This document shows, piece by piece, positions 3,861-62,709 of a stretch of DNA of 64,000 nt. Position numbers and translations under genes: made by a program. Origin of the DNA: a virus (lineage: Duplodnaviria > Caudoviricetes); IMG/VR virus record IMGVR_UViG_2623620512_000003, positions 114-64,113 of that record; one strand, 5' to 3'. Numbering within the stretch: the first letter of the stretch is position 1; the number at the start of each line of letters is the position of its first letter. The notes under the pieces are model-generated. The model did not search any database. It saw only the letters and a list, made by a program, of their open reading frames with translations, and was not told where the DNA came from.

Positions 3861-3921
3861 TCCTGGCACATAGTCTCTTTTCTCGATTTTTTTTCGTATC
3901 TTTGCATCTCAATTCATACAT

Positions 3922-4551
3922 ATGAGCAAGTATATTTCAGAAAAAACACTGAGAACCATCCAAATAAGGAATGCAAAGAGTAGAAGCCAGATAATGCGAA
4001 CTTACTGGATAGAACTGGTATGCAGAATAGCTATTACTTACCAGCATTATTTTGATATGCGAAAGACTGGAGAAGTCTCAACTATAAATGCAACTGTTCA
4101 AGAAATCGAGAAAAAAATTGATTTCGCTAACTCGGTTTTCGACATTGACATTACGCTTTCTGACATATATGATTTCCAGCGTAGAAGTGTTGATAGCAGC
4201 ATCCAACAGTACGAGCAATACAAGAAAATCCTGGAATTCCAAGCTAACGATATTTTCAAGCCTAAATTAGTGGATATGCTGTGCAAGGAGTTGTTCGAGG
4301 AAGATGGTGAAAATCCTATTAACACTTTCATCTTTGGATATTACAGTGAAGTTGCTATCTTGATACTAGATTACATGTGCGAAGGTTTGGACTATGATAC
4401 ATTTATGAAGAATCTATTGGCTATCAAACTAGTCCCACATCAAAAGCCCATCGATGGAACAATTCTAAGAAGAATGATTAGAACTGGCGATAAATGGGAA
4501 AAGCGCTATGCCAAACTCTTCAAAGAAGAACGAGCTAAAGGAAATATATAA
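3922..4551 (+). CDS. Hypothetical protein (moron with its own promoter)
   Basis: 209-aa ORF preceded by TATCTTTG at 3897. Confidence 0.6.
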   Translation: MSKYISEKTLRTIQIRNAKSRSQIMRTYWIELVCRIAITYQHYFDMRKTGEVSTINATVQEIEKKIDFANSVFDIDITLSDIYDFQRRSVDSSIQQYEQYKKILEFQANDIFKPKLVDMLCKELFEEDGENPINTFIFGYYSEVAILILDYMCEGLDYDTFMKNLLAIKLVPHQKPIDGTILRRMIRTGDKWEKRYAKLFKEERAKGNI

Positions 4552-23763: not shown

Positions 23764-23766
23764 CCT

Positions 23767-26700
23767 ATGAAATTTGATGAAGAAAAATCATTTGAGGATG
23801 CCCTTGTTGCGCTGCTTGCTCCTTCGAAAGGATGGAACAAGAAGTTATTGATGTACCCCACAGAGGAGGATTTAATAGCGAATTGGGCACAGATTCTCTT
23901 TGAGAATAATCGCGAGATTGACTGTCTGAACGAGCAACCGCTGACAGACACAGAGATGGAACAGGTTCTTCAACAAGTGTATAATTTGAAGACTCCCATC
24001 AAATTAAATGGTTTCATTAATGGCAAAAGTGTGGCCATAATACGTGACAACAAGAACGATAAATTACACTTTGGAAAGGAAGTTCGTCTGAAAATCTATG
24101 ACCGCAACGAGATAGCCGGTGGCAAAAGCCGTTATCAAATTGCACGTCAGCCCAAATACAATAAGAAATGTCCTGTATTGCAAAATCGTCGTGGCGACAT
24201 TACACTTCTCATCAATGGTATGCCTGTGATACATATAGAACTGAAGCGTTCAGACACTCCTATCAGTAAGGCCATACATCAGATAGAGGAATATAGTCAT
24301 GAGGGCATTTTTACAGGAATCTTCTCTTTAGTACAGGTGTTTGTGGCGATGACCCCAGAAGAAACACTATACTTCGCCAATCCCGGTCCTGATGGAAAAT
24401 TCAATCCAAGTTACTACTTCCACTGGGCAGATTTCAACAACCAAGTAATCAATGAGTGGGAGAAGATTGCAGGCTTGTTATTATCCATTCCAAAGGCACA
24501 TCAACTAATAGGATTTTACACCGTAGCAGACAAATCGGACAACACGTTGAAAGTGATGCGTAGTTATCAGATTGAGGCAGCTGAGAATATCAGTGATGTG
24601 GTGAGGGATATTCACTGGGGCGAGAATAATCTCCGTGGTGGTTATATATGGCATACCACAGGAAGCGGCAAAACAATGACCAGTTTCAAGACCGCATGTC
24701 TCATAGCTGAAGCAGACAAAGCTGATAAGGTGATTTTCCTAGTTGACAGAATAGAATTAGCCACCCAGTCGACATTGAAATACCAGGGGTATGCAGATGC
24801 AGAAGGCGATGTTGTAGATACCGATGATTGCGAAGACCTGATAAGCAAGTTGAAGAACACAGAAGATGACTTGATCGTGACCTCTATTCAAAAGATGAGC
24901 CGAATAACTATTGGTGAATCAAAGAAGCGCGACCGCGACATTGAGAAGATTCAAAAGAAGCGAAAAGTGATCATTATCGACGAATGTCATCGCGATACTT
25001 TCGGTGATATGCTCATAAACATCAAGCAAACGTTTCCCGAATCGGTATTGTTTGGTTTTACAGGCACGCCTATTGATAAGGAGAACCAAAAGAAGCTGAA
25101 CACAACAGCCACCGTATTTGGTAACGAATTACACAGATACACATTGGCAGATGCCATAACCGATAAAAATGTTTTGGGATTTGACCCACGAATGGTGCTT
25201 ACTTACAAAGACAAAGATTTACGCAAAACCGTAGCACTGGAAAAAAGTAAGGCTAAGTCAGAAGAAGAAGCAATAAGCCATAAAGCCAAGGCCAAAGTGT
25301 TTTACCACTATATGAATGATGTGCCGATGGCTGGATATACGGACGAAACAGGCAAATACCATTCCGGCATAGAAGACCATATTCCATCCTCGCAATATAA
25401 GCTTGGCAAGCACCGAATCGCAGTTGTAAATGACATAAAAGACGGATGGCTGACACTAAGCCGCAACAACAAATTTCATGCGATACTGGCCACATCGAGT
25501 ATAGTCGAAGCTATAGCATATTACAGATTGTTCCGTGAACTCATGCCTTCGTTAAAAGTGACGGCACTTTTTGACTCTTCCGATAATCACAATGAGACTT
25601 CTATTGAAAAGATTGATGGACTGAAGGACATAATTCTTGATTATAATAGTTTCTATAGACAGAAGTTCTCGATTAGCAATTATGGCATGATGCGTAAGGA
25701 CATATCAGCCAGGATGTCGCATACAGAGCCTTATCTTGGACTACACAAAACGCCTGAGATGCAAATCAATCTGCTGATAGTAGTTGATCAGATGCTTACG
25801 GGTTTCGACTCAAAATGGGTAAACACTTTGTACTTAGACAAGATGCTGGAGCAGGAGCACCTGATACAGGCTTTTAGCCGTACCAACAGATTGTTTGGAC
25901 CAGACAAACCTTTCGGAAACATACGCTTTTATCGCAGACCGCACACTATGAAGCGTAATATAGACGAAGCAATATCACATTATAGCGGTGACCGCCCTCA
26001 AGGGTTGTTCGTGGAGCAGTTGGAATATAACCTGCACAAACTCAATGAGATATTCACAGACATTGATCATCTGTTCTCTACTTCTGGCATCAAGAAATTT
26101 GAAAGATTGCCAGATGATATAAGTGAGAGGCAAGAATTTGTAAAACTCTTCAACCAGTTTAATAAGTATTTAGAGGCTTCCAGGATTCAGGGATATATTG
26201 CATTCGAGAAGATGCAGAAGGTGGAGAAAGAGGAAGGTACAACAGTGATGGTTGAAATGTTGTTCGACGAAAACCAGTATAATGCCTTGCTTCAGCGCTA
26301 CAACGAGCTCTCGCATGGGGGCGGAGGTGGAGGCGATGAAGACGTGCCATACGACATTGAAACATATATTACGGAAATAGATACAGGCAAAATAGATGCC
26401 GACTACATGAACCACAAGTTTGACAAATGGCTCAAGGTACTTGCACAGCCTGATGTGACAGAAGAAGAGAAAAATGCTACGCTCGACGAACTGCACAAAT
26501 CCTTTTCCACTCTGACACAGGAAGAGCAAAACTACGCATATATCTTCTTGCACGATATAGAAAACGGTGATGTAAAACTAAAGCCTGGCAAGACTTTGCG
26601 TGATTACATAACCGAATATCTGACTCGCTCCCAGGATCGCCGTATTCACCATTTTGCAGAGACATTCGGTTTGGATGAGCAGCAACTGCGAGACATTATG

Positions 26701-26904
26701 CTGTCTGGGCCAACTACTGAAAATATTGACATTAGGGGAAGATTTACAAATCTTAAGAAAAGTGCAAATATAAATCTCGCCAAAAATTATTTTGAACAAG
26801 AGGAAAGGAGCAAATTTCCCACCCCTATAGTGATAGTGAAACTGGATAATCTACTTAGAAAATTCATTTTGGGAGAGGCTGATGAGAATTTTAACGACGA
26901 TTAG
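23767..26904 (+). CDS. hsdR: Type I R-M restriction subunit
   Basis: D...IELK nuclease motif, HTTGSGKT, DECH, FTGTP, QAFSRTNR. Confidence 0.95.
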   Translation: MKFDEEKSFEDALVALLAPSKGWNKKLLMYPTEEDLIANWAQILFENNREIDCLNEQPLTDTEMEQVLQQVYNLKTPIKLNGFINGKSVAIIRDNKNDKLHFGKEVRLKIYDRNEIAGGKSRYQIARQPKYNKKCPVLQNRRGDITLLINGMPVIHIELKRSDTPISKAIHQIEEYSHEGIFTGIFSLVQVFVAMTPEETLYFANPGPDGKFNPSYYFHWADFNNQVINEWEKIAGLLLSIPKAHQLIGFYTVADKSDNTLKVMRSYQIEAAENISDVVRDIHWGENNLRGGYIWHTTGSGKTMTSFKTACLIAEADKADKVIFLVDRIELATQSTLKYQGYADAEGDVVDTDDCEDLISKLKNTEDDLIVTSIQKMSRITIGESKKRDRDIEKIQKKRKVIIIDECHRDTFGDMLINIKQTFPESVLFGFTGTPIDKENQKKLNTTATVFGNELHRYTLADAITDKNVLGFDPRMVLTYKDKDLRKTVALEKSKAKSEEEAISHKAKAKVFYHYMNDVPMAGYTDETGKYHSGIEDHIPSSQYKLGKHRIAVVNDIKDGWLTLSRNNKFHAILATSSIVEAIAYYRLFRELMPSLKVTALFDSSDNHNETSIEKIDGLKDIILDYNSFYRQKFSISNYGMMRKDISARMSHTEPYLGLHKTPEMQINLLIVVDQMLTGFDSKWVNTLYLDKMLEQEHLIQAFSRTNRLFGPDKPFGNIRFYRRPHTMKRNIDEAISHYSGDRPQGLFVEQLEYNLHKLNEIFTDIDHLFSTSGIKKFERLPDDISERQEFVKLFNQFNKYLEASRIQGYIAFEKMQKVEKEEGTTVMVEMLFDENQYNALLQRYNELSHGGGGGGDEDVPYDIETYITEIDTGKIDADYMNHKFDKWLKVLAQPDVTEEEKNATLDELHKSFSTLTQEEQNYAYIFLHDIENGDVKLKPGKTLRDYITEYLTRSQDRRIHHFAETFGLDEQQLRDIMLSGPTTENIDIRGRFTNLKKSANINLAKNYFEQEERSKFPTPIVIVKLDNLLRKFILGEADENFNDD

Positions 26905-38014: not shown

Positions 38015-39595
38015 ATGAACATACTACGCCTATTTATAATCTTTCTTTTCTGCATTTTTAGCTTTTCAGAAGCAAAAGGGCAGTATATTGTGAAAATTTA
38101 TGTATCTGATGAATCTACAAATCCATGCACAAATATTGACAATGCCATAGTGCTAATAGACGACAAAGAGAAGTTAAGGACAGGAACTGATGGTATGATA
38201 ATTCATTTATTATCATCGGGTAAACACAAAATAAGAGTTAGTCACAAATTCTATGAACCTATCGAATTCGAGGTTGAGAAATCGTCTTTTTGTATGGTTG
38301 AATTACAACGAAAGTCTGGCGGGGAAGGGCGAGCGGGATACTACATTACAACAGATGAGGGCCAAACATTTGGAAAAATATGGTCCTATACAAATATAAA
38401 GAGTATGGCCGATTCATTATACGAAATTGGACAAAAATATTACGATATATCTATTGAGGCTGAAGAAAGAAAGGAAAAAGAAATTAATTATAATAAAGCA
38501 ATTTCTTATTTCACAGAAGCTGCAGAGTTGAATCATCCAATAGCAACTTTTTATATAAATCAACATTTCTATGAGAATAACTTAAGAGAAGAAGGTCTTC
38601 AATGGTTACAGAAAGTAGCAAATAATGGAAATACAAAAGCGATGTTTTACTTAGGGCTATATCATTTGGAATGTAAGAACTATACCTTAGCACTCGAATT
38701 ATATCAGAAAGGAGCAGATTTAAACGACATTGATTGCCAAATGGAATTAGCTGAGATGTACGAAAAAGGGCTTGGTGTAGAAAAAGATATAAATAAGGCT
38801 ATGAAGTGGTACAGAATGGCTAAAGGAGTCAATGATGATGTAAGTACGCAATTATCTATACCAGCATCCACAAAACCTCTTCCCATCTTACCCCAACAAA
38901 AGCGCCTCGCATTATTAATTGGAAATAGTGATTATCAGACAGGAAGGCTTTTATGCGTTGGAAAAGACGTTAAAGACATGAAAGCTAAATTGGAAGAGCT
39001 TGGCTTTGAAACAATGTATTGTCCAAATGTCGAATTGATGGAGTTTCTGCAGGTTATTTCTAGGTTCTGCAAAAAAGCTCGTGAGGGGGAATATGACGCA
39101 ATGTTATTTTACTTTGCAGGTCATGGGATTCAATGTCAAGGAGAAAACTACCTTGTACCCATAGGAGATTTCTACGATGATGATATTTTGGTAAAAAAGA
39201 TGTACATTGGAATGAACGATGTTCTCAACGAGACTGCAAAAACTGGCGTAAAAACCAGAATATTTATCCTTGACGCATGCCGTGAACAACCAGTAGCATT
39301 TACACGTAGCATATCAAAGGGACTTGTTGGATTGGGTAACACACCTGGTGTTTTCATGGCCTATTCCACGATGGCAGGTAAAACTGCAAAAGACAATGGA
39401 GGAGATGGCAATAGTCCATACATCAAAGAGTTGTTAGAAGAACTTAACGTACCGCAGAGACCAATTAATGATGTTTTTGAGAACGTCAAAAGGCGAGTTA
39501 GTCAAAAAACAGGTGGAAAGCAACAGCCTAGCCACGTTAATGATCTTGACGTCAGTAATGACGAGATTATATATCTTAATAGGAACAATAAATAA
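38015..39595 (+). CDS. Exported SEL1-repeat plus caspase-like (C14) peptidase
   Basis: Signal peptide, PEGA-like segment, SEL1 repeats, ALLIGNSDY, catalytic FYFAGHG and ILDACR. Confidence 0.85.
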   Translation: MNILRLFIIFLFCIFSFSEAKGQYIVKIYVSDESTNPCTNIDNAIVLIDDKEKLRTGTDGMIIHLLSSGKHKIRVSHKFYEPIEFEVEKSSFCMVELQRKSGGEGRAGYYITTDEGQTFGKIWSYTNIKSMADSLYEIGQKYYDISIEAEERKEKEINYNKAISYFTEAAELNHPIATFYINQHFYENNLREEGLQWLQKVANNGNTKAMFYLGLYHLECKNYTLALELYQKGADLNDIDCQMELAEMYEKGLGVEKDINKAMKWYRMAKGVNDDVSTQLSIPASTKPLPILPQQKRLALLIGNSDYQTGRLLCVGKDVKDMKAKLEELGFETMYCPNVELMEFLQVISRFCKKAREGEYDAMLFYFAGHGIQCQGENYLVPIGDFYDDDILVKKMYIGMNDVLNETAKTGVKTRIFILDACREQPVAFTRSISKGLVGLGNTPGVFMAYSTMAGKTAKDNGGDGNSPYIKELLEELNVPQRPINDVFENVKRRVSQKTGGKQQPSHVNDLDVSNDEIIYLNRNNK

Positions 39596-40782
39596 TGAAA
39601 AAGAAATTAATTAGCTATCTGCGTAATAAGAAGCGGCATCTAATAGTTGCTACATTGATGGCTATATTTGCAATAACAGTAGGCTATTGGACCATGAACT
39701 GGTCCGTAACATTGAGCTCAGAGAAGGCAAACCTGCAATTATTAGAGTATATCCGTCAGCAAATCTTTGGTGCAAATATATCACATGCATCAGACTCCAT
39801 TCTTATGGTAGATGTGCACTATGATAAGGTCATGGTACCAGAACATAAGAAGTCGGCTGATGGAACTCAATTAGAATTAGGTCAAGTGCCTGTGACAGAC
39901 CGTGACAAATTACTTCGTCTGCTTAAACAGCTGCAGTTAAAAAAAGACTACCGCTATGTGATACTTGACGTCCGTCTAGAAGAGTCTACAAGTCAGTCTG
40001 AAGATTCTGCATTATGGCAAACAATTTCAGAGATGCCACGACTTGTACTTGCAAACCCTGTGGGCACACAGATTGCAAGTCCAATTCTAAATAAAAAAAC
40101 TGCTGCAGCACAGTACCAGACAGCACTGTGGGAAACAGACTTCGTAAAATACCCTTTCTATGCAGATACTATTCCTAGTATGGCTTTGACAATGTATAGA
40201 GAGATTACAGGACATGACATCCAACGCCAAGGTCCTCTGTGGATGGACGGATATCAATTATCTAGACGCAGTATACTATTGACCTGGGATTTTTCCGACT
40301 ACAGAGAACGTTTTTATCTAGGTGATTTACTTGAAGAACTTGGGGAAGGTGATGAAGAAGACTGGGCAGGAAACCCTTCGGGGAAATATATACTCATTGG
40401 GGACTTTGAAGATGATATTCATCCAACATTCTTAGGCGAGATACCGGGAACTTTGTTAATTTACAATGCCTTCTCTTCACTTTTACACAAACGCCACGTA
40501 TTATCACTAAGCTTTTTATTTTTACTCTTTTGCATATACTTCGCGTTAGCATGGCTCACACTCTCACACAATAGCAGATTTAAATGGATATGCTCATTTT
40601 TGGGTTATACAGGTTTCCTTTTTATCGTGAGCATCATTACATATTTGGCTTTTAACGAAGTCTATGACATTTTGATAACTGCCCTTCTTTTCACAGGGTT
40701 GAACAAAATAGTGGGAATGACCAATAGCCGCAACAAAATTAAACAATACCTAGTACGAATCAAAAAACATTTCTCAAAATGA
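39595..40782 (+). CDS. CHASE2-like membrane sensor without output domain
   Basis: N-terminal TM, ILMVDV, TDRDKLLRLL, VILDVRL, GKYILIG..EDDIHPT..GEIPG, then about 3 TM helices. Confidence 0.65.
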   Translation: MKKKLISYLRNKKRHLIVATLMAIFAITVGYWTMNWSVTLSSEKANLQLLEYIRQQIFGANISHASDSILMVDVHYDKVMVPEHKKSADGTQLELGQVPVTDRDKLLRLLKQLQLKKDYRYVILDVRLEESTSQSEDSALWQTISEMPRLVLANPVGTQIASPILNKKTAAAQYQTALWETDFVKYPFYADTIPSMALTMYREITGHDIQRQGPLWMDGYQLSRRSILLTWDFSDYRERFYLGDLLEELGEGDEEDWAGNPSGKYILIGDFEDDIHPTFLGEIPGTLLIYNAFSSLLHKRHVLSLSFLFLLFCIYFALAWLTLSHNSRFKWICSFLGYTGFLFIVSIITYLAFNEVYDILITALLFTGLNKIVGMTNSRNKIKQYLVRIKKHFSK

Positions 40783-45233: not shown

Positions 45234-45773
45234 ATGATTCCTTTTCATCCGCAAACTCCGGAAAAGCCAACAACAGTTCCCAACAACGACACCTTCAACT
45301 GGGATGCCACATCGTTCTTTGAAGGCCTGACCAAGCGCAACAAGTTCGCTCAGTCCAAGCACTTCACTTTCTGCCGCGTCTCAGGGCTTGACGGCTTCGA
45401 AGAAGCACTGGCCAAGATGCTGACGAAAACGGCTTTCGTCTGTGTGTCCGACATCTCTCAGGGATTTACGGACATCAACAACACACCGCACACTCGCCGA
45501 GTGAAGACGGTGTTCCTGGCCATGCGCCACACACTTGACAATATGGTGGCCCGCCAGTCCTGTATGGATGCGATGCGCGAGCTATTCCGACAGTTCATGT
45601 CCGTCCTGATCCAGGAACAAACACGTCTGCAGCAGCACTCCATCTACATCGACCCCCGCATCTCATTCCAGGAAATAGACCGCTATTTCTTCTCTGGATG
45701 CGCTTGTGCCTACTTCCAAATCGCTGTTGACACGTATACAGACCTTCAATACAATCAAGAGGAATGGACTTGA
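45234..45773 (+). CDS. Phage protein, possible tail terminator
   Basis: 179 aa; position in the neck/tail region. Confidence 0.5.
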   Translation: MIPFHPQTPEKPTTVPNNDTFNWDATSFFEGLTKRNKFAQSKHFTFCRVSGLDGFEEALAKMLTKTAFVCVSDISQGFTDINNTPHTRRVKTVFLAMRHTLDNMVARQSCMDAMRELFRQFMSVLIQEQTRLQQHSIYIDPRISFQEIDRYFFSGCACAYFQIAVDTYTDLQYNQEEWT

Positions 45774-46192
45774 ATCAGCATCCCAATCCACAAGGCGAGC
45801 GCGAGAAATATGTCCTCGCCTTCAATGACACCATGCTCAAAATCTGGCAGGAACAAATCACCCTGTTAGGAGTCATCGACACTGGCCGCTTGCTGCACTC
45901 CGTCAGCGCTCTCCCAGTTCGTGCTGACGGTCGTTTCATAGAAATCGGCCTCTCCCAAGCTTTCCTCGAATACGGACTGTGGCAGGATTTTGGCACAGGA
46001 AAAGAAATACCCAGAGGAAACAATGGCGACATCGGACGTGAAAAGCGCCGTGTCGCCAAAAAGTGGTTCTCTCGAAAGTATTATTCCTCAGTCCTCAACC
46101 TCCGTGACTTCCTGGCTGATAACATCGGCCAGTCATTCGTTGGTGTTGTAGCCCAGGCCCTCGATGACAACTTCCGTCGATATCACCATTGA
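45764..46192 (+). CDS. HK97 gp10-like neck/tail completion protein
   Basis: IDTGRLLHSV and YGLWQDFGTG motifs. Confidence 0.55.
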   Translation: MDLNQHPNPQGEREKYVLAFNDTMLKIWQEQITLLGVIDTGRLLHSVSALPVRADGRFIEIGLSQAFLEYGLWQDFGTGKEIPRGNNGDIGREKRRVAKKWFSRKYYSSVLNLRDFLADNIGQSFVGVVAQALDDNFRRYHH

Positions 46193-48791: not shown

Positions 48792-49076
48792 TTATTTTTT
48801 TAATTGTATATCTTTAAAATACCAAAAGGTCTTGGCATTCTTCCGTTCAGCATAAGCATAGGGAATCCAATCAAGCCGGCCATCTTCATCAAGTTCTTTT
48901 AATACATTACGAATAGGCTGACCATCTTTATCATTTCTTTTAAACAAGCCTACCTTCATGAACTCATCCATCAGGTCTTTGGCCAAAATAGTTTCTCCAG
49001 GATGCTTGCAGAAGTATTCTTTTAGTACCTCGTTAATATATGGAACTTTAACGTAATTTGCGATTGAATTCTTCAT
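48792..49076 (-). CDS. Hypothetical protein
   Basis: 94 aa after minus-strand TAATTTTG box near 49108. Confidence 0.55.
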   Translation of the reverse strand: MKNSIANYVKVPYINEVLKEYFCKHPGETILAKDLMDEFMKVGLFKRNDKDGQPIRNVLKELDEDGRLDWIPYAYAERKNAKTFWYFKDIQLKK

Positions 49077-49146
49077 TATATTAAATCTAACTCTATCTTT
49101 AATTCTGCAAAATTACAAAATTCAACTGAAACGCCATCCTATTTAT

Positions 49147-49182
49147 GTCTTTTTAAGATTGAAACACATCACATACCTTTGC
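49147..49182 (+). promoter_or_regulatory. Core-operon promoter motif, copy 7
   Basis: GTCTTTT at 49147, TACCTTTGC at 49174. Confidence 0.7.
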
Positions 49183-49208
49183 GCCATCAACATCCAAACC
49201 GACACATC

Positions 49209-49457
49209 ATGACTAAAGAAACTAGGACTGACATCCAAATCTATTCTGCCATCGCAATGCTGATGGCTGGAGTAGGACTCGCCACAGCGGGCTTCATCGT
49301 ACCGCCCACAGGCGAGATATCTGACTCTGTGCTCTTGTTCTTCGCACAATGTCTTGTATACGCTGGCTCAATATTCGGTGTGAGCATTTATATCCACACC
49401 AAGTTCGCAGAGCTCAAATCTGAAATCGACGCTAAAGAGGAAGGAGGCGAGCAATGA
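49209..49457 (+). CDS. Putative holin
   Basis: Two TM helices around PPTGEISDSVL; overlaps amidase start. Confidence 0.65.
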   Translation: MTKETRTDIQIYSAIAMLMAGVGLATAGFIVPPTGEISDSVLLFFAQCLVYAGSIFGVSIYIHTKFAELKSEIDAKEEGGEQ

Positions 49458-49966
49458 CACGCGAGATTCGTGAGATTATCGTCCATTGCACGGCTACGCC
49501 AGAAGGTCGCGAGATGACCGTCAAGCAGATTGACGACATCCACCGCACCCAGAACAAATGGCGCTGCATCGGCTATCACAAAGTGATTTACCTCGACGGC
49601 ACCATTCACGACGGCCGGCCCATCGATATGGTGGGCGCCCATTGCTCTGAGGATGGGCACAACCGCCATAGCATCGGCATTGTCTATGTCGGAGGCTGTG
49701 CCAAGGATGGCAAGACGCCCAAGGATACGCGAACGCCCGAACAGAAGGTAGCGTTGGCAAATCTTTTGGAAGAGCTTCACAAGATGTTTCCGGGCGCCAC
49801 CTTACACGGACATCGTGAGCTGGTCTGCAGTCTGAAGAAGAAAGATCCCCATCATCCCTGCAGCCGCTGCAAAGGCTACCCTGCCCTCTGCATCTATGCC
49901 AAGAAATCATGTCCGTCGTTTGACGTTCACGAATACGATTACATCTTTAAATCACACTCAAAATGA
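49454..49966 (+). CDS. Endolysin, N-acetylmuramoyl-L-alanine amidase (T7 lysozyme-like)
   Basis: IIVHCTAT, IGYH, GAHC, SIGIVYVGG, HGHRE, CPSF. Confidence 0.9.
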   Translation: MTREIREIIVHCTATPEGREMTVKQIDDIHRTQNKWRCIGYHKVIYLDGTIHDGRPIDMVGAHCSEDGHNRHSIGIVYVGGCAKDGKTPKDTRTPEQKVALANLLEELHKMFPGATLHGHRELVCSLKKKDPHHPCSRCKGYPALCIYAKKSCPSFDVHEYDYIFKSHSK

Positions 49967-50598
49967 AATACTTCACTCGCTTTATAATACTTATTTTCAT
50001 CGTTTGTTTGACGTCACTTACTTCCTGCAGGACGATGCGCACGTCCGAAAAGACGGTAAGTGAAAGTGAGACGGCCTCCGTGACGGCATCCCGTCTCACT
50101 TTTTACCGCACTCTCGATTCTCTCTCCAGACAGTTCCGCCTGTCTGCAGACAGCATCATCATGATATTTGCCACGTCGCCGGAGTCTCCAAGGGAGTACC
50201 CATCTGGGATGGAATGTCCCTTGGAGACTCCGTCTGACTCGCAATCCATCCCGCATAATCCAGCCCGCAAGCGCATCCGAAACGCTTCGCGTTCCGCATC
50301 CGCTACGCGGCCTTCACAAGTTCCTTCATACCTGCTGCCCCCATCAGGGCCTTCAGCTCTCAAAATCTACGGACTACACATCGCTGACAACAGCGAAGAG
50401 AAGTCCTTCTTCAACGCCGATTTGAAGGACAGCATGGCTCTGGCCACCCAGTCCCAGAAATCAAAATCGGCCATTAAGCAGAAAACTACTCCTTCAGCCA
50501 CTTTTAAGTGGCTCGTCATCATCCTGACTGCTTTCATCTGCATCAGCTTCGCACTCATTCTGATTCGTTTCATACACAAACATACGTTTCTAGCATAA
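49963..50598 (+). CDS. Putative spanin (lipoprotein with C-terminal TM helix)
   Basis: Lipobox LTSC, C-terminal hydrophobic helix, third gene of the lysis cassette. Confidence 0.55.
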   Translation: MKYFTRFIILIFIVCLTSLTSCRTMRTSEKTVSESETASVTASRLTFYRTLDSLSRQFRLSADSIIMIFATSPESPREYPSGMECPLETPSDSQSIPHNPARKRIRNASRSASATRPSQVPSYLLPPSGPSALKIYGLHIADNSEEKSFFNADLKDSMALATQSQKSKSAIKQKTTPSATFKWLVIILTAFICISFALILIRFIHKHTFLA

Positions 50599-50660
50599 TC
50601 TGTGTTCATTACCGATAAAGTTCTTTTTTCATAACTTCGATTCGAAATTTCTATTCATAT

Positions 50661-50694
50661 TGGGCTGTCCGTGAGGATCGCCCAATATTTTTTG
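50661..50694 (+). terminator. Terminator-like hairpin after lysis cassette
   Basis: tgggctgtcc-gtga-ggatcgccca followed by atattttttg. Confidence 0.6.
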
Positions 50695-50699
50695 CCCCA

Positions 50700-51430
50700 C
50701 CCCATACCCCTGCGGGCTTACAATCATCACCTTATCGATGATAGGCTTGTGCTGTTGGCTCGGCTGGTCACTCGCTACAGGGCTGACAGTTAAAGAGCCT
50801 GTGCACTGCCTAAGCGGTGAGCGGTATGGCTTCAAAGAAGTAAGTATGTACTTGCTCAGGGCTGTCACACGTGCCCGCTCAGATCAAGTCCACACACACT
50901 CCCTTGCCCTGCCATAGGCTGGGACAGCCATGCTGCTCGCCGCGCAGCACCCATGCACTTCACACCAGCCCCCACGAGTGGCACAGCGTCGCCAACACCG
51001 CACAAGCGATGAACTTGTCAGTCCATCAAGCCCTTGCCATAAAGCCTTCGGCTCATAATCGTATGAAAAGTCATCCCGCCGAAAAAGGCAGCAAATAATG
51101 CAGCCACATTCGGCTGTTTCTCATGCAGAAGTGAATAGTCAGAAATAAAATCTGAGGCACGTTAAGGCTCCGCGAGCCACACTCTGCCGCAGATTTTCTT
51201 TATGCCCATTCACACCTGCCAGTACCGCACTTTATGCGCATTCTTTAGCATCACGCTCTGCAATGATGCCACTCTATCCTTGCAAGCAAGTACATAGGTT
51301 AGGCAGACAAACATTGGCTATGATTTCAATCAGATTGATTGAGGTCATATCCAAAGATTGTCTTGATGCCCATTCCACATGCACAACACGAAACCCTCGA
51401 CACGTCGGAGGGATTTCGTGTTGCGCCCGT
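50700..51430. ncRNA. Large structured non-coding element (candidate ncRNA)
   Basis: Many nested long-range stems and no credible ORF. Confidence 0.5.
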
Positions 51431-51968
51431 GGCTCTTTACCGCACATTCTTGTCTAAATGGCTCAAGCATCGTGAGGGGGCTCTATCAACATAAGGCGAC
51501 CTTTTGCCCTATTTTTCGCCTCAAATACCCGCTTTCATATCATAGTGCGACCCTTTGCCTTTTTTTTCGCTATTATCGTGAATTTATTGCTAATAATGGC
51601 TATTTATGGCACTTTTGAGATAGTGCGAGACTCTGAGGTCATAATTAACAAAAGAGACTTTTATCCCCAATTTCTTTAACATTCGTTTACACTCTCAGCA
51701 TATTCCGCACGGCTTTAAGGTTGGAAGAGGTTCGAGGAGGACAGGGCGCGTGGGGGGTCTCTACTCCGAGGGGTTAAGGGCTCTGCCCTTAACAATCCCG
51801 TAAGTCATTGAAAATCAGCACCAGAAACAGTTATTAACTTAACTATTTCTGGAATTAACAAAAACGTCCCCATATACGGACGTTTTTACGTTATGCTGAC
51901 AATGACTGGTGCCCGCTGTCATCCCCAGTCTTCGTCCAGTCAAGTCTCAGTACTGGGGCATCGTTCAC

Positions 51969-52004
51969 GTCTTTTCTAACCTGTACGCGTGTATATAACT
52001 TTGC
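51969..52004 (+). promoter_or_regulatory. Core-operon promoter motif, copy 8
   Basis: GTCTTTT at 51969, TAACTTTGC at 51996. Confidence 0.7.
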
Positions 52005-52027
52005 GGCATAAATCATAAACGCATATT

Positions 52028-55000
52028 ATGTCATCAATCAACACAAACGCAACTGTCACCCTGACCGTCAATGGTAAGCAGGCGCAGGACATGCTCGATA
52101 GCCTAAAGAAGAAGTCGCAGGATTTGGAGAAGGCTATCGAGAATGCTGCAAAGGCAGGAAATAAATCTGATTTAAAGAGGCTGCAGAGGGAGCTAAGGCA
52201 GACCAACCGCCAGATATCGCAGATAGAATCGGCGACTGTCGGTGTGGAGAAGGTGCTGAAGAACCTCGATAAGGCTACACCAAAGGAGTTAAACAAGACG
52301 CTCTACACCTTGAAGCAGCAGCTCAACGGTATAGAGCGTGGTACCGTGGAATGGAACCGTCAGGCAGAAGCCATCAAGCGTGTAAAGGCGGAGATAGCCC
52401 GCGTGAATGCTGACCTTATCGAGGGTGAAGGCTTCTGGGACCGCTTCAACCGCAAGATGAACGACTGGCAAACAACCCTGATGGGTATGATTGCCGCCAT
52501 TACTGGCCTAATAATGGCCGGACGTTCAGCAGTCAAGGCGTTTGCTGACATGGACGCGGAGATGGCCAATGTCCGCAAGTTCACGGGAATGACAGAGGAA
52601 CAGGTGGAGGACTTGAACGATGAGTTCAAGAAGATGGATACCCGTACCGCCCGTGAACAACTGAACGTACTTGCGGAGGATGCGGGAAAGCTGGGAAAGC
52701 AGTCCAAGGAGGATGTTCTGGGCTTCGTGAGAGCCGCTGACAAGATAAACGTGGCACTCGATGAACTCGGAGATGATGCCACCTTGACGCTTTCGAAGCT
52801 GACCACAATCTTCGGCGACGAAAAGCGTCTGGGAACAGAGAAAGCCCTGCTATCCGTTGGTTCTGTCATCAACGAGCTCTCACAGAACTGTACGGCTGCA
52901 GCACCTTACCTGGCCAACTTCGCCAAGCGAATGGCAGGTGTCGGTGCCCAGGCTGAGATGACTATCCCGCAGATCATGGGCTTTGCAGCCGTGCTGGATA
53001 GTCAGGGACAAGCGGTAGAGATGTCGGCTACAGCCGTTTCCAAGCTCATCATGGATATGTTCAAGCAGCAGGATAAGATTATCAAGGCAACGGGCATGAA
53101 TGCGGAGAAATTCAAGGAGGCTCTTTCCCGCAGTACCAACGAAGGCCTTCTGATGCTGCTTGATACCTTGAACAAACTGGGCAACATCGATGTGCTGGCT
53201 CCAGTATTCAAGGATATGGGCGAGAACGGTGCCCGCGCAGCGCAGGTCATCTCCGCACTCGCTGGTAATTTGAATATGGTGAAGTGGGAACAGGAGGAAG
53301 CTGCCAGAGCTTTTGAGGAAGCAACATCCGTCACCAAGGAATACAACGTTCAAAACACGACTGTTCAGGCCAGTCTTGACAAGGCCAGAAAGCGTGTTAC
53401 CGAGATGGCTGTCGAGCTGGGTGAGAAGCTGCAGCCTGTGATGAAGCATGTGCTTTCATCTACTACGATGCTCCTGAAGTTCCTGTCTGCCTTGGTGGAC
53501 TTCATAGTAAAGTACAAGGTAGAGATAGCCAGCGTCACAGTCAGCATCATTGCATATAACGTAGCCATTAACCTGGCCACGATACGTACGAAGGCTGCAG
53601 CTGCAGCACACGTACTTATGAACGCAGCCCTGAAGACGGGTCATGCCCTGATGATTGCCGGACGACTGGCTCTGCTTGCTCTCGGCATTGCATATGACTT
53701 GGTTACGGGCAATGCGCTCCGTGCAGCTCTGGCAACGAAGGTGTTCACAACAGCCATCAAGGCAAATCCCATAGGTCTTTTGGTTACTACCTTGACCGCC
53801 GCCGTAGCTGCTATTATCGCATGGCAGGCCAAGGTACGCTCAGCACGTGAGGAGCAGGAGCGTTTGAACCGGGAGGCACGACAGGCTGCAAGGGAGATTC
53901 GTGACGTGGAGGCAAGCATCGCGGAAGAGACTTCGACTGTCAAGCGCCTGAAGGACGCCATTGACAGCGAGAACGTCGGAAGCCGAAAGCGCAACGCCTT
54001 GATTAAGGAGTTCAACAGTAAGTTCGGTTCATACCTCTCGAACCTGCTGAACGAGAAATCTACGGCGCAGGATCTGGCGGATGCCTACAAGGAGGTCGTG
54101 AAAAACCTCAGGGCCAAAATGGTTCTCGAGGCCAAGGAAAAGGACATGAAGAAGAATGCGGGCGTTCGCTATGGATGGGAGGCCAAGAAGCTCTCTGACT
54201 ATGACAAGATAGCCCGTGAAAAGAAGTCGGCGATGACAGGGGCATGGCTGAAAGCGGCTGTAGACGAGGAATTTGAGAAGATGCAGAAGGAAGGAAAGGC
54301 TGTATCAGCTAAGGACTTGTCGAAGGCAGTGTTCAGTCATCATATCGCACCGCAGCGTGTCCGTGAAGGGTATTACAATTCTGAAGAGAACCAGCTGGAC
54401 ACGTCGATGGGTGAGGCAATTGAATCCTTTATCAAACAGTATGTAAGCACACGTGCCTATGAGCAGCGGGTAAACAAGAAGTGGGCGCCATATTCCAAGG
54501 AGATAGACTATGCTATTGAGCAGGGCATGAATCTGGAAGACGCTGGTGATAGCGGATTAACGCCGGAGCCTGAGCCAGAGAAGGACACCAAGACACAAAA
54601 AGACCGCTTCAAGACAGAAAAGGAGTGGAAGGCCAAAGAGGAGGCGATGAACCGAATCAGCTATGCCACAGGTAAGGAGAACTATGAGCAGTACCAGAAG
54701 CGCATTCTCGAGATTGAGGTTGAGTACCAGACGAAGATTCTGAATCGAAGCGACCTGACAGACCAGGAGCGTCTTACGGCTCAGGCTGAATACTACGAGA
54801 CGAAGAAAAAACAGACTGAGCAGGGTGAGAAGATAACTGTTGAACAGGAGACGCAGCTATATAACGAGGCTATTTCCATTCAGAAGCAGCGTTATATCGA
54901 TGGAGAAATTAGCACAGAGACGTATCAACAGACGCTTGAGATACTGGAATTGAACCATCTTCGACGCATGACCACCATCACGGAGGAGGGCTCAAAGGAG

Positions 55001-56245
55001 AATATCGAGGCACAAAAGGCGTATCAGGATAAACTCATTGCCGACCAGAAGAAGCGTCAGCAAGAGACGGAATCTGCCGAGAAGAAGCACCAGGATCACC
55101 TGAAACAGCTCAAAAAGGACTATTTCGGTGATAATAAAGGTGAGCGTGTCAGCAAATATATGGCTGATTTAGAGGCACTTCGAGAGGTGTATAATCTCGA
55201 GGTGAAAGCAGCGGGCGACAGTGCTGAGGAGAAGCTTCGTATCGAAGAGGCATACCAGAAGGCAAAGAAGGCCTTGCGCAAGAAATATGGCATGGACGAA
55301 CTGGATGAGAATAAGAGTTTCCTTGAAGAATGGAACGAGGACATGCAGGAGTGGCTGCAGTCTGATATGGGCAAGGCCGTCACTGGTTCCTTGGAGGTTA
55401 TCAGCTCAGGCATGAGCAGTATCTTCCAGCAGATGTCCTCATTGGTTCAGGCCGAGGCTGACATTCAGGTAGCAGCCATTGAGAAGCGCTACAAAACGGA
55501 AATCTCCAATGCAGAGGGCAACAACTATCAGGTGAAGAAGATTGAAGAGAAGAAAGAAAAGGAGGTTGCCAAGGTCAAGAACGATGCCAACAAGAAGATG
55601 TATAAGATGCAGGTCATGCAGGCCATCGCGCAGACGGCCACGGCTGCACTGAATGCCTATAGCTCTGCAGCTGCAGTACCTGTCATCGGTTACATCCTGG
55701 CACCTATTGCCGCAGCCACGGCAGCAGCTGCAGGTCTGATGCAGGTGGAAGCCATCAAGAAGCAGCAGGAAGCGTCGAGCGCACAAGGTTATTCGAAGGG
55801 TGGCTTCACACCTGAGGGAGGAAAGTACGAGGTAGCCGGCGTCGTTCATAAAGGTGAATGGGTAGCTTCACAGGAGTTGCTGCATTCGCCCGTAGCCCGC
55901 CCGATGATTGAAGCCCTGGACTATGCGCAGCGAACGAACACAATAGGATCGTTACGCTCGGAGGATGTTTCAAGAAGCATCGTAGCTCCAAGCGTTTACG
56001 CACAGTCCGGCCAACCAACGCCAACCGTCATTGTGCAGCAGCCTGGATCTGATGCACAAGCCGAGATTGCAGCAACACACGCCGTCATGAAGGAGTATGC
56101 GACTGTTATCCGTCAGCTCAAGGAACGTCTGGACGAACCTTTCGTGACTGTCAACACCGTTACTGGTGATACAGGCATCAAGCAGGCTCAGGATGAATAT
56201 GAGCAGTTGATGCGTAATAAGACACCTAAATCAAGGAGAAAGTAA
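52028..56245 (+). CDS. Tail tape measure protein
   Basis: 1405 aa, helical and Ala-rich; TP901-type core (MANVRKFTG...), ANPIGLL, GGFT...AGVVHKGEWV. Confidence 0.92.
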   Translation: MSSINTNATVTLTVNGKQAQDMLDSLKKKSQDLEKAIENAAKAGNKSDLKRLQRELRQTNRQISQIESATVGVEKVLKNLDKATPKELNKTLYTLKQQLNGIERGTVEWNRQAEAIKRVKAEIARVNADLIEGEGFWDRFNRKMNDWQTTLMGMIAAITGLIMAGRSAVKAFADMDAEMANVRKFTGMTEEQVEDLNDEFKKMDTRTAREQLNVLAEDAGKLGKQSKEDVLGFVRAADKINVALDELGDDATLTLSKLTTIFGDEKRLGTEKALLSVGSVINELSQNCTAAAPYLANFAKRMAGVGAQAEMTIPQIMGFAAVLDSQGQAVEMSATAVSKLIMDMFKQQDKIIKATGMNAEKFKEALSRSTNEGLLMLLDTLNKLGNIDVLAPVFKDMGENGARAAQVISALAGNLNMVKWEQEEAARAFEEATSVTKEYNVQNTTVQASLDKARKRVTEMAVELGEKLQPVMKHVLSSTTMLLKFLSALVDFIVKYKVEIASVTVSIIAYNVAINLATIRTKAAAAAHVLMNAALKTGHALMIAGRLALLALGIAYDLVTGNALRAALATKVFTTAIKANPIGLLVTTLTAAVAAIIAWQAKVRSAREEQERLNREARQAAREIRDVEASIAEETSTVKRLKDAIDSENVGSRKRNALIKEFNSKFGSYLSNLLNEKSTAQDLADAYKEVVKNLRAKMVLEAKEKDMKKNAGVRYGWEAKKLSDYDKIAREKKSAMTGAWLKAAVDEEFEKMQKEGKAVSAKDLSKAVFSHHIAPQRVREGYYNSEENQLDTSMGEAIESFIKQYVSTRAYEQRVNKKWAPYSKEIDYAIEQGMNLEDAGDSGLTPEPEPEKDTKTQKDRFKTEKEWKAKEEAMNRISYATGKENYEQYQKRILEIEVEYQTKILNRSDLTDQERLTAQAEYYETKKKQTEQGEKITVEQETQLYNEAISIQKQRYIDGEISTETYQQTLEILELNHLRRMTTITEEGSKENIEAQKAYQDKLIADQKKRQQETESAEKKHQDHLKQLKKDYFGDNKGERVSKYMADLEALREVYNLEVKAAGDSAEEKLRIEEAYQKAKKALRKKYGMDELDENKSFLEEWNEDMQEWLQSDMGKAVTGSLEVISSGMSSIFQQMSSLVQAEADIQVAAIEKRYKTEISNAEGNNYQVKKIEEKKEKEVAKVKNDANKKMYKMQVMQAIAQTATAALNAYSSAAAVPVIGYILAPIAAATAAAAGLMQVEAIKKQQEASSAQGYSKGGFTPEGGKYEVAGVVHKGEWVASQELLHSPVARPMIEALDYAQRTNTIGSLRSEDVSRSIVAPSVYAQSGQPTPTVIVQQPGSDAQAEIAATHAVMKEYATVIRQLKERLDEPFVTVNTVTGDTGIKQAQDEYEQLMRNKTPKSRRK

Positions 56246-59684: not shown

Positions 59685-59757
59685 TACACCCGCAGAGGTT
59701 CGAACTCTGGACACCCTGATTAAGAGTCAGGTGCTCTACCAACTGAGCTACGGGTGC
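59685..59757 (-). tRNA. tRNA-Lys(CTT), probable attachment site
   Basis: GCACCCGTAGCTCAGTTGGTAGAGCACCTGACTCTTAATCAGGGTGTCCAGAGTTCGAACCTCTGCGGGTGTA cloverleaf; promoter TACCTTTG at 59781-59788 on minus strand. Confidence 0.96.
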
Positions 59758-60459: not shown

Positions 60460-62709
60460 TCACTTTTCACTATTCACTTTTACCTTACTCCAGTGGTAGC
60501 GGTCGGTTTTGCTAATCCATCCGTCGCGCATCCATCGAGAGATAATCATGCGCATGGCCGATTCCGAGCAGTAGCCGCACTTCAAGGCTCGCAGGTCGTC
60601 GAGGGTAAAAGTGGGTGCAAGCTGGTCGAACACGGAGTGGTTGGCTCCATATCGCTGACACTCCTCATGAGCATCAACATATTGATTCTGTAATGCCTCG
60701 CCGAATGCTTTTATCTGCTGAGAAAGGCAATACTCGGCCATCATCAGTGCGAAGTCTATACAAGCCTTGGATTCCTTGAGGTTTGAGGTTTGAGATTTGA
60801 GGTTTCTCGCCCCCATGGAGAGCAGGTGGAACACAACCCCGCACCGGAAACCGATGACGGCAGCACGCTTACGATAAGTATCCTTCACGTGGTCGATATC
60901 CTTGGCAGCCTCTACGCGTTTCTGCTCCACCCACTGCTCGATGGCCTTGCGCAGACGCGGGGTGTCAATGAGTCCGGAGAACGCACGCAGACGGGTGACG
61001 GCCTCTTGTATCATGGCTTCATCCCCGGCCGAACGACGGCCAAACTTGGGCATCTTCGAGAAACTGCTGTCGGGCATCTCGGCCACGAGGATTCGGCTAG
61101 AAAGCCCGTTCTCTATGTTGTCCGACTTAAAGCACTTTCTGAGTGCTCCGTTGGTGCCGAGCATCGTCCAGTTGTAGGCCACCTTCACCACTCCCGACTC
61201 TGCGGCATCCGAGTTGTAATCCTGCCCCCACTCACCCTTGTCAAAGCTCAGGCGGTAGATGTCGTACTTTGAGCTCCACGAGCCGGCACCGTTGGTTTTA
61301 CGCAGGGTGTCGAGTTCCTCACCAAAGCTGTAGAGCGTGTGACCCTGAGCATTCTTGAAGCGCTTGAGCAAAGTAGAACACGAGACCGTCACCGGCACCA
61401 TCCTTATCAGCACCTTCGGGTCGTCGGGCGCCTTCTCGTTGGCCTTGCGCCCCTTCTTGCGCTCCTTCCACTCCTCCTCACGCTTTCGGGCAAGGGCGTC
61501 TTCTTCATCGAACTGACGCTTCCATACATCGATGGCATTCTTCACCACCGACTTGTTAGAAGCCTGTTCACCACGTATAATCGACATCAGTCCCAGGTGC
61601 TGCAAGTTGCCGTCGCAATACTCCACCATCACCTGGTCGGCATAGGCCGCTGCAATGGGCAGCACACCACAGAGCACCGGCATGTGCATCGACACGGGCA
61701 CACCCGTCAGCGACTCTTTAAGGCCCATTGGCAAAGCTTTGACATTGACCTTCACACCAGTCTCTGCCCGAACCGCCTCGGCATCCTCGATTTCGTCTGA
61801 AGAGATACCCATTTCCAGCGCACTTACAATGCCTTGCATCATCTTTGAAATGCCCTTGGGCGTCTCCTTGCAAGCCGAGTCGACCACGCTGCGAAGTTCA
61901 ACGTCGGAGAGTCCGAATCGGGGCATCACCTGCATCAGCACCTCTTTCTTGTTGTCGCAGATAGCACGAAGACTGACGGCCAACTTGTGCAGTTTCACGT
62001 TGCGCTCGCCTTCGGCCGGCTCTCCGCCGTTGCGATGCCACCACTCTGCTATAATAGAGGTATAAGGGATGCCCTTGAACATCAGTTCCGTATGGGGCTC
62101 TTGTGCGGCTTCGGATGTAGGCAGGCTCTTCTGCTCGCAGCCCTCATCGGAAGTCGGCTGACTTTTGCGCTCACAGTCCTCAGAGACCTCAAACAGCTTG
62201 TCGCTGACATACTTCGTATGGTCCTCGGGCACCATGTAGATGCACCTCGAAACATCCTTCACCGCGGCATCCGGCTCAAAGCCCGTAGCCTCCTGCATCA
62301 GCTGCTGAGCCTGCTCGGCCGTCATGCCGTCGGGCAACTCAACGAGCACATGAGTGCCACGACGAACGCTTTCCTCTATCAGCAGCGGCACCAACGGCGA
62401 CTGCTCCAAGAGTCGGGCACAGATTTCGTCCGTGTGACCCTTCTCGTCAAAATCCAGCATCAGTCGGTTCAGCGGACGCACCGCATCGGCAATGGCACGA
62501 TGATTATTCTTGAACTCAGCGCAGTGGGGTGTCCACACCGGCAGCCGATGCTTCAACTGCTCGTCGCCACGCTCTATCCTTTCACACATCTCTTTCAGCC
62601 AAGGCTCGCGGCGAAGTTTTTCCCAATCCTCGCGGTTGGCTGGTAAGCAAGGGGCGCCGTGTCCCTTGCCTATGCATGTAAACATCAATCGTTCCAAAAT
62701 CATTTCCAT
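60460..62709 (-). CDS. Bacteroidales primase-like protein (VirE_N, PriCT-like and DUF3987-like regions)
   Basis: KHRLP, MLDFD, KDVSRCIY, EGERN..L, EELDTL, NGLSSR motifs. Confidence 0.65.
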   Translation of the reverse strand: MEMILERLMFTCIGKGHGAPCLPANREDWEKLRREPWLKEMCERIERGDEQLKHRLPVWTPHCAEFKNNHRAIADAVRPLNRLMLDFDEKGHTDEICARLLEQSPLVPLLIEESVRRGTHVLVELPDGMTAEQAQQLMQEATGFEPDAAVKDVSRCIYMVPEDHTKYVSDKLFEVSEDCERKSQPTSDEGCEQKSLPTSEAAQEPHTELMFKGIPYTSIIAEWWHRNGGEPAEGERNVKLHKLAVSLRAICDNKKEVLMQVMPRFGLSDVELRSVVDSACKETPKGISKMMQGIVSALEMGISSDEIEDAEAVRAETGVKVNVKALPMGLKESLTGVPVSMHMPVLCGVLPIAAAYADQVMVEYCDGNLQHLGLMSIIRGEQASNKSVVKNAIDVWKRQFDEEDALARKREEEWKERKKGRKANEKAPDDPKVLIRMVPVTVSCSTLLKRFKNAQGHTLYSFGEELDTLRKTNGAGSWSSKYDIYRLSFDKGEWGQDYNSDAAESGVVKVAYNWTMLGTNGALRKCFKSDNIENGLSSRILVAEMPDSSFSKMPKFGRRSAGDEAMIQEAVTRLRAFSGLIDTPRLRKAIEQWVEQKRVEAAKDIDHVKDTYRKRAAVIGFRCGVVFHLLSMGARNLKSQTSNLKESKACIDFALMMAEYCLSQQIKAFGEALQNQYVDAHEECQRYGANHSVFDQLAPTFTLDDLRALKCGYCSESAMRMIISRWMRDGWISKTDRYHWSKVKVNSEK

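Follow-up and report, generated by a model that had tools for sequence, protein, structure and literature searches.

The window analyzed here consisted of 64,000 nucleotides (positions 114 to 64,113) of a Caudoviricetes provirus record, IMG/VR record IMGVR_UViG_2623620512_000003, with a total length of 64,113 bases. The left part of the window contained genes for a DnaC-like loader, a helicase/primase, a PHROG anti-restriction protein (3246 to 3860), a head maturation protease, and the large terminase. Cargo genes followed, including a complete type I restriction-modification system in the same prophage (HsdM, HsdS, and HsdR; 19755 to 26904) and a Peptidase_C14 (caspase) protein with Sel1/TPR repeats adjoining a CHASE2-domain protein (38015 to 40782), possibly a defense or signaling pair. 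These were followed by a block of minus-strand genes and then by the lysis cassette. Between the 211-amino-acid (aa) ORF of this cassette and the tape-measure gene lay a noncoding gap of 1.43 kb (50599 to 52027), the features of which are listed in Table 1. Conserved noncoding blocks extended to approximately position 51960, beyond the region that was noted in the first-pass annotation. The PhageMin_Tail protein of 1,405 aa was a distant relative of tape-measure proteins of Flavobacterium and other phages. On the 3' side of its gene were a 655-aa ORF, a minus-strand tyrosine integrase gene, and then a tRNA-Lys gene approximately 8 kb from the noncoding locus. When the whole window was scanned against Rfam at gathering score, the sole match was a tRNA at 59685 to 59757. 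A DUF3987 protein (749 aa; 60460 to 62709) was encoded just past the tRNA-Lys gene, beyond the prophage end, and could be part of another integrated element. At a distance of 5.8 kb upstream of the tape-measure gene lay two plus-strand ORFs of 179 and 142 aa that overlapped by 10 nt (45234 to 46192). No family matches supported a chaperone identity for these two ORFs; if they do form a tail chaperone pair, an insertion between chaperones and tape measure would have brought in the noncoding locus together with the lysis cassette and the minus-strand genes.

Table 1. Features of the noncoding gap and its borders, with RNA-library contigs that matched it (positions are those of the window)
Feature	Position	Strand	Description	Basis
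Lysis cassette	endolysin 49454-49966; 211-aa ORF ending 50598		92-aa ORF, Amidase_2 endolysin, 211-aa ORF	
Terminator-like hairpin with T6 run	50657-50694	+	14-nt arms, 86% complementary; closes the lysis cassette, directly before block A	I13
Block A	50695-51060		Branched long hairpin, ~360 nt	MFE/z, alignment, covariation, RNA-library contigs
Block A outer helix	50714-50719 / 51028-51033		Encloses small hairpin, long arm, and 3' hairpin	
Block A small hairpin	~50723-50743			
Block A long arm	50745-51007		Imperfect, ~260 nt	
Block A 3' mini-hairpin	51043-51053		AGCC-TTC-GGCT	
Blocks B1/B2	51075-51450		Four hairpins in total, two in each	
Block B1	51075-51230		Hairpin 51078-51114 and 95-nt hairpin 51125-51219	I1, alignment A4, covariation, RNA-library contigs
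Middle part of B	51226-51300		With small CCGCAC...GTGCG-type hairpin	Alignment A4
Block B2	51305-51449		Hairpins 51305-51363 and 51375-51432	I2, I4
Recurrent end motif of B2	51436-51449		TTTACCGCACATTC	
Block V	51490-51640		Degenerate direct repeats, 51-nt spacing	D1/D2
Block C	51700-51855		Near-invariant sequence	Alignment A2, 46 sequences
Block C palindrome	51774-51792		Perfect, 8 bp, TTAAGGGC-N3-GCCCTTAA; arms invariant, spacer free to vary	
Block C inverted repeat	51821-51852			
Terminator-like hairpin	51860-51892	+	10-nt arms, 100% complementary; A-run before, T-run after	I24
P hairpin	51924-51959		Fixed loop core, 58-61 nt upstream of the tape-measure -7 box	
Promoter box	51996-52003	+	TAACTTTG, matches TAnnTTTG; 25 nt before the tape-measure ATG	
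Tape-measure gene	52028-56245		ATG at 52028; PhageMin_Tail, 1,405 aa	
X17 contig, 448 nt	50658-51061		7 differences; extends by 15 and 29 nt of window-unlike sequence	
X18 contig, 240 nt	50695-50934			
X15 and X16 contig, 332 nt	50803-51134		Bridges the A/B1 junction	
X15 and X16 contig, 178 nt	touches 51174-51221			

No credible ORF occupied the gap, as the first-pass annotation had claimed: none exceeded 79 aa, and no frame was kept among homologues. All three stop codons were found in all six frames of the gap, so that no single stop reassignment would open it, and recoding of TAG, TGA, or TAA was rejected accordingly. Neither a conserved reading frame nor the remnants of one stayed open among the homologues. 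Block A was G+C rich, and stop-free runs of at least 40 codons covered most of it in most copies; the longest frame differed even between the window and a copy with 98% identity. The translations of these ORFs shared no peptide beyond what nucleotide identity imposes, 10 of them produced no matches in Pfam, and insertions and deletions in block A did not occur in threes. A conserved small ORF or type I toxin peptide was also considered and rejected, with no candidate of consistent length or sequence.

The nested stems described in the first-pass annotation were read in the sequence at their reported positions. These were gggctt (50714) with aagccc (51028), gcttgtgc (50745) with gcacaagc (51000), cactcg (50769) with cgagtg (50975), gggctg (50781) with cagccc (50966), and gagcggtatggct (50819) with agccatgctgctc (50926); the further hairpins that it listed were recovered as inverted repeats I1, I2, and I4. 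Folding energies were compared with those of shuffled sequences, and both structured regions were better than their shuffles on both strands. The minimum free energy (MFE) of 50700 to 51040 was -141.8 kcal/mol on the plus strand (z = -5.61) and -159.6 kcal/mol on the minus strand (z = -4.67), with none of 100 shuffles as good on either strand, and z scores for 51065 to 51440 were -7.69 (plus) and -6.49 (minus). A piece of the endolysin gene of equal length, used as a control, had a z score of -1.82 (plus). Among homologues of block A, all 12 diverse copies folded better than shuffles on both strands (z < 0). Consensus folds of blocks A and B comprised one four-way junction and serial hairpins, and the mismatches and internal loops of the long imperfect duplex in block A were themselves conserved. 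A UNCG tetraloop in the plus-strand 3' mini-hairpin of block A was rejected, with a 3-nt loop found in 23 of 30 copies. The loop reads TNC on the plus strand and GNA on the minus strand, and a 3-nt loop of this kind does not settle the strand.

Relatives of the locus were collected at two levels. The neighboring 211-aa protein, used as a query, identified three related viral contigs, in which the gap DNA was 76 to 82% identical to that of the window, versus 54 to 64% for the protein. A larger collection was obtained with a 21- to 25-nt word from block C, the most conserved block, and every locus in it was thus ascertained through block C. The word was found in 10 viral, 10 species-genome, and 44 metagenome loci, which together with the window made 65 sequences, of which 53 were distinct (52 other distinct loci). 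The named genomes were those of rumen Prevotella, Xylanibacter ruminicola, and Prevotellaceae. Distribution was very narrow, with the core word in only 10 of the species genomes scanned and a block A match in 2 of 401 family genomes sampled. Deposited phages had no match to the region by blastn, and a gapped pattern for block A matched viral contigs at only two loci, both already known, and by chance at three unrelated ones.

Coverage and profile searches of the relatives revealed that the modules were separable, each being present, absent, or duplicated independently of the others. Block A was present in 32 of the 53 loci and was absent from at least 8 loci with 2.8 kb of upstream sequence, indicating that it is dispensable; it occurred twice in L026. 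Its upstream flanks varied widely among relatives, and in some cases a copy followed a different gene or a B1 fragment. B1 was duplicated in L011/L015 and in L027, and 51226 to 51300 was missing in some relatives (nhmmer coverage gaps at model positions 169 to 228). The most widespread folded module was B2, covered in 48 of 52 homologues (BLAST). All 30 block A copies and all same-strand B matches had the orientation of the tape-measure gene. These separable modules, together with RNA-library contigs that fell only on A and B1 (see below), did not bear out the single unit of about 750 nt proposed in the first-pass annotation.

Cargo genes were observed between or inside the modules of several relatives. 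In L020, a 1.76-kb insertion interrupted block A at its apex, with a gene for an M6-peptidase-like secreted protein (2959 to 4491) in the apical loop. A conserved 137-aa protein of no family (L009, 5779 to 6192) was encoded by an ORF with its own promoter box approximately 28 nt after block A in 11 loci. Others included a lipocalin-like lipoprotein (L011, 3438 to 3887) and a Sel1-repeat protein (L026, 764 to 2320). The motif TTTACCGC(A/C)CATTC recurred at module boundaries, at 51223 to 51241 and 51436 to 51449 in the window and upstream of block A in L014, L016, and L048. It was often completed to a CCGCAC...GTGCG hairpin, as if punctuating the modules.

Counts of covariation among the homologues showed that helices of both block A and block B were kept by compensatory changes. 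In an alignment of 30 distinct block A copies (alignment A3), 90.9% of cells were paired, versus 82.4% when shuffled. Both sides had changed in 43 of 94 pairs (27.3 when shuffled; 10 to 17 pairs in slid controls) and in 253 cells (89.3 when shuffled), and none of 500 shuffles reached the observed paired percentage, pair count, or cell count. Similarly, 97.5% of cells were paired in 25 copies of block B (92.9% when shuffled), and 30 of 82 pairs were compensatory (10.0 when shuffled; 2 to 7 in slid controls), values again reached by none of 500 shuffles. Helices 9 and 10, which belong to B2, contained 7 and 4 compensatory pairs, respectively.

These results bear on the possibility, raised in the first-pass annotation, that the gap is debris, either a decayed gene or a foldback or MITE-like mobile element. 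Block A is indeed missing from some loci, occasionally duplicated, and in one case interrupted by an insertion, and the stop-free stretches of at least 40 codons over most of it could be taken as traces of a gene. However, the open frames shift among close relatives and share no conserved peptide, Pfam matches are lacking, indels do not occur in threes, and paired columns covary. Dispersed copies, as a MITE or foldback element would have, were not found; block A had a single match in each of the five host genomes and occurred in only the two family genomes mentioned above, at a constant locus and in a constant orientation. The debris or mobile-element reading is thus largely refuted and is considered hardly credible.

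Six metatranscriptome runs shared a small part of the words of 50600 to 52100, and four of these were compared with 49000 to 53000. Contigs from these four runs, representing at least three coded studies, matched block A and B1 (Table 1); they were assembled and give neither strand nor ends, and those of X15 and X16 were identical and may be one data set. Blocks A and B1 are therefore present in RNA libraries and can share one molecule, with the limit that libraries of this kind can contain DNA and the contigs are no strict proof of an RNA template. The 448-nt X17 contig passed through the hairpin at 50657 to 50694 into block A. Across 49080 to 53000, no contig from the four runs fell on the lysis genes, B2, V, C, or the tape-measure gene; relatives there may differ by more than 12%, so these contig-free stretches were not counted as silence, though a discrete A-B1 transcript predicts them. 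A separate X17 contig (2,204 nt; depth, 26.5) had its end approximately 24 nt beyond 49079, adjacent to a TAATTTTG box on the minus strand (49108 to 49115). This end is consistent with a start site of the minus-strand gene block at 46.5 to 49.1 kb but is suggestive only.

The ambiguity of strand described in the first-pass annotation was real and persisted, with wobble counts favoring the minus strand and z scores favoring the plus strand. Consensus energy was -196.9 on the minus strand versus -171.1 on the plus strand. A.C was the majority at 12 pair positions in block A and 5 in block B, whereas G.T was the majority at 2 and 3, respectively; an A.C on the plus strand is a G.U on the minus strand. 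When the pair set was chosen regardless of wobble, the counts were only 189 A.C versus 111 G.T, and a local plus-strand excess of C over G could produce part of the A.C bias by mutation alone. In favor of the plus strand, the mean dinucleotide-corrected z score of 12 diverse block A copies was -6.94, versus -5.24 on the minus strand, and conserved G.U pairs were found in one long helix of block A and one B2 hairpin. The evidence leans slightly toward the minus strand. Conservation of both A.C and G.T mismatches would likewise be compatible with constraint on the DNA itself or on both strands. No canonical promoter box for block A or B was found on either strand. A minus-strand TAnnTTTG inside B2 (model position ~235) was considered and rejected; it occurred in some 7 to 8 relatives, and the window reads AATGTTTG.

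Plus-strand synthesis would be expected if blocks A and B were a cis-acting 3' extension of the lysis mRNA, reached by read-through of the hairpin at 50657 to 50694. The long duplex might then be a processing or stability element analogous to lambda sib, leaving a stable structured fragment. The sib element of lambda mediates retroregulation through RNase III, which cuts long imperfect duplexes, and the long imperfect duplex of block A resembles that type of substrate. In both lambda and the present locus, the terminator of a phage operon is followed directly on its 3' side by a large hairpin in the same strand orientation. Block A begins within a few bases of the terminator-like hairpin of the lysis cassette and has the same orientation in 30 of 30 copies, no promoter box lies between the two, the X17 contig crosses from one into the other, and z scores are better on the plus strand. 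However, the hairpin with its T6 run resembles an efficient stop (it was not flagged by a consensus scan), the majority A.C positions (12 versus 2 for G.T in block A) fit the minus strand better, and block A has different upstream flanks among relatives, including other genes and a B1 fragment. The element also differs from sib in being 10 times larger, in consisting of several modules, and in lying behind different upstream genes in relatives. On balance, this cis-acting extension is regarded as unlikely.

The part of the gap downstream of B2 differed in character from blocks A and B. In block V, tandem repeats finder (TRF) detected only a weak 10-nt repeat in the window. Relatives carried tandem arrays between B2 and C that differed in period and copy number, such as 57 nt by 3.7 copies (L002, 5379 to 5590) and 39 nt by 3.9 copies (L004, 5375 to 5524). 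The V core, TTGCC-T-run-CG, was complementary to the 5' arm of the first B1 hairpin (51080 to 51095; I15/I16), and the array could be a set of iterons or an alternative pairing partner. A roughly 90-nt near-invariant stretch (51742 to 51815) surrounded the 8-bp palindrome of block C. None of the 24 pairs predicted in block C was compensatory in the 46-sequence alignment, and an impression by eye of compensatory changes in the inverted repeat at 51821 to 51852 was refuted (79.0% paired cells versus 79.2% when shuffled). Block C was thus conserved as sequence, without covariation, as a protein-binding site would be, with the caveat that every locus had been ascertained through a word within this block. 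To judge from these sequence comparisons, block C looks more like an operator or other sequence-specific site than a folded RNA. The hairpin following block C varied in sequence among relatives and was missing in some, with the A-run and T-run kept (alignment columns 176 to 205).

Upstream of the tape-measure gene, 39 of 53 loci contained the loop core of the P hairpin. The stem of this hairpin came in two mutually compensated versions, CCCCAGT/ACTGGGG and CCCATAC/G(C/G)(A/T)ATGGG, and the hairpin may be a site for an activator or a repressor. The Bacteroidetes -7 promoter consensus is TAnnTTTG, for which the only match within the gap began at 51996; a match occurred at the equivalent relative place in most relatives. 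Blocks C and P, conserved in sequence rather than in structure, are more likely to bind proteins as DNA or to act as a sequence-specific leader in the control of the tape-measure operon.

The same features allow a broader reading in which the hairpins and repeats act as DNA, as a single-stranded initiation or replication signal, as a packaging- or partition-type site with V as iterons, or as operators. Conserved A.C and G.T mismatches are found as if neither RNA strand were selected, V varies in period and copy number as iterons do and its core can pair with the first B1 hairpin, and block C, with its invariant palindrome arms and free spacer, behaves like a protein-binding site. Loops of the GNA type are known for stable DNA mini-hairpins, and the block A mini-hairpin has such loops on the minus strand. 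However, compensatory changes over at least 70 bp would require a single-stranded state, and contigs from RNA libraries fall on A and B1. Genes for replication (the DnaC-like loader and helicase/primase) and the large terminase gene are approximately 35 to 50 kb away; at this distance, the locus is not expected to serve as an origin or a packaging site, and no rolling-circle Rep or partition gene was found among the ORFs scanned. A DNA-level function for the hairpins and repeats as a whole is considered quite improbable.

Comparison with known systems yielded no family to which the locus could be assigned. Rfam 15, assumed to contain GOLLD, ROOL, 6S, HEARO, and phage antisense RNAs, produced no match at gathering score in the region; 11 matches to 50300 to 52200 were returned at E ≤ 10, the best with E = 1.2, at 12 to 20 bits versus gathering scores of 36 to 100. 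RNAs of the 6S kind are rod-like and sequester proteins. Block A resembles them in forming a long rod that is largely double-stranded and keeps its internal loops, a likeness that may suggest protein capture; unlike 6S RNA, it has no 6S-type match in Rfam, its arm is about twice as long, and a central-bubble signature was not established. In type III toxin-antitoxin systems, an RNA repeat array (ToxI) lies directly upstream of a gene for a ToxN-family endoribonuclease. Block V resembles ToxI in being a short tandem array (units of 39 to 57 nt in 2 to 4 copies) that is followed by a terminator-like hairpin. Unlike in ToxIN, invariant block C lies between the array and the hairpin, and the next gene encodes the PhageMin_Tail tape measure rather than a ToxN-type nuclease, which ruled out membership in this class.

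The first-pass annotation had also pointed to large structured prophage RNAs such as GOLLD and ROOL. In two papers that describe them (PMC5737381 and PMC12286853), GOLLD and ROOL are structured noncoding RNAs (ncRNAs) of several hundred nucleotides and unknown function, often carried by prophages and located close to tRNA genes; cow rumen data were the source of the first ROOL examples. Both have ornate folds with several multistem junctions and pseudoknots, according to PMC5737381. Compared with these descriptions, the present locus is similar in being carried by a rumen prophage close to (~8 kb from) the tRNA-Lys gene. It differs in having no covariance-model match and in forming, in pseudoknot-free fold predictions, a chain of long imperfect hairpins in place of multistem junctions and pseudoknots. 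It also differs in its modularity, with modules that are individually dispensable, and in its very narrow distribution. No relation to GOLLD and ROOL was found beyond this prophage setting. The element was not described in the full-text literature searched; the supplementary motif lists of PMC5737381, which lay outside that search, might hold a partial match.

Because blocks A and B are noncoding, conserved, and covarying, have contigs in RNA libraries in the case of A and B1, and correspond to no Rfam family, a new structured RNA is the best reading, and the locus probably encodes such an ncRNA. On these same grounds, the large ncRNA proposed in the first-pass annotation is supported in part, though not as a single RNA of 750 nt. 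With modest confidence, the gap as a whole is interpreted as a conserved, modular noncoding locus of a lineage of temperate tailed prophages of rumen Prevotella and Xylanibacter, in which A and B encode a structured RNA of a new family. The RNA from A and B1, perhaps also including B2, would be one transcript of at least 0.45 to 0.7 kb or a few adjacent ones, and C and P would form a separate regulatory region for the tape-measure operon with its own promoter. The discrete single transcript, its strand, its timing, and its binding partner are putative elements of this interpretation.

The structured RNA may be the RNA counterpart of a phage “moron,” since the locus sits in a hotspot of variable prophage cargo genes. 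The long imperfect duplex with conserved mismatches and internal loops, together with the single-copy, modular occurrence, suggests a stable prophage-made RNA that would act in trans as a scaffold or decoy for proteins. More specifically, and only tentatively, A and B may be a large modular RNA moron of lysogens (~0.45 to 0.75 kb) that diverts a protein of the host or a rival phage, such as a nuclease, polymerase, or immune sensor. No partner protein or gene was identified for the A-B RNA. Antisense targets in the rest of the window were limited to chance matches of 11 to 13 nt (E of about 1 to 15), and a 15-nt complementarity between 51335 to 51349 and the tape-measure start (I11) was rejected, as it was not kept in relatives when inspected by eye.

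Bacteria and phages have only a small number of large structured RNAs to which no function is assigned, and every one of these has been a source of unexpected biology. The locus described here is suited to follow-up, as its helices have strong comparative support, cultured rumen isolates carry it, and natural variants lack or duplicate single modules. A cis-acting RNA would show how these phages switch a tape-measure operon that stands apart from the rest of the structural genes. An RNA that acts in trans in lysogens would bring RNA into the set of prophage cargo that alters the behavior of rumen hosts. Should the RNA moron reading be true, the locus would rank with GOLLD and ROOL as the source of a large orphan RNA but would differ from them in its architecture of rods and hairpins, built of units that can be duplicated, lost, or interrupted by cargo.
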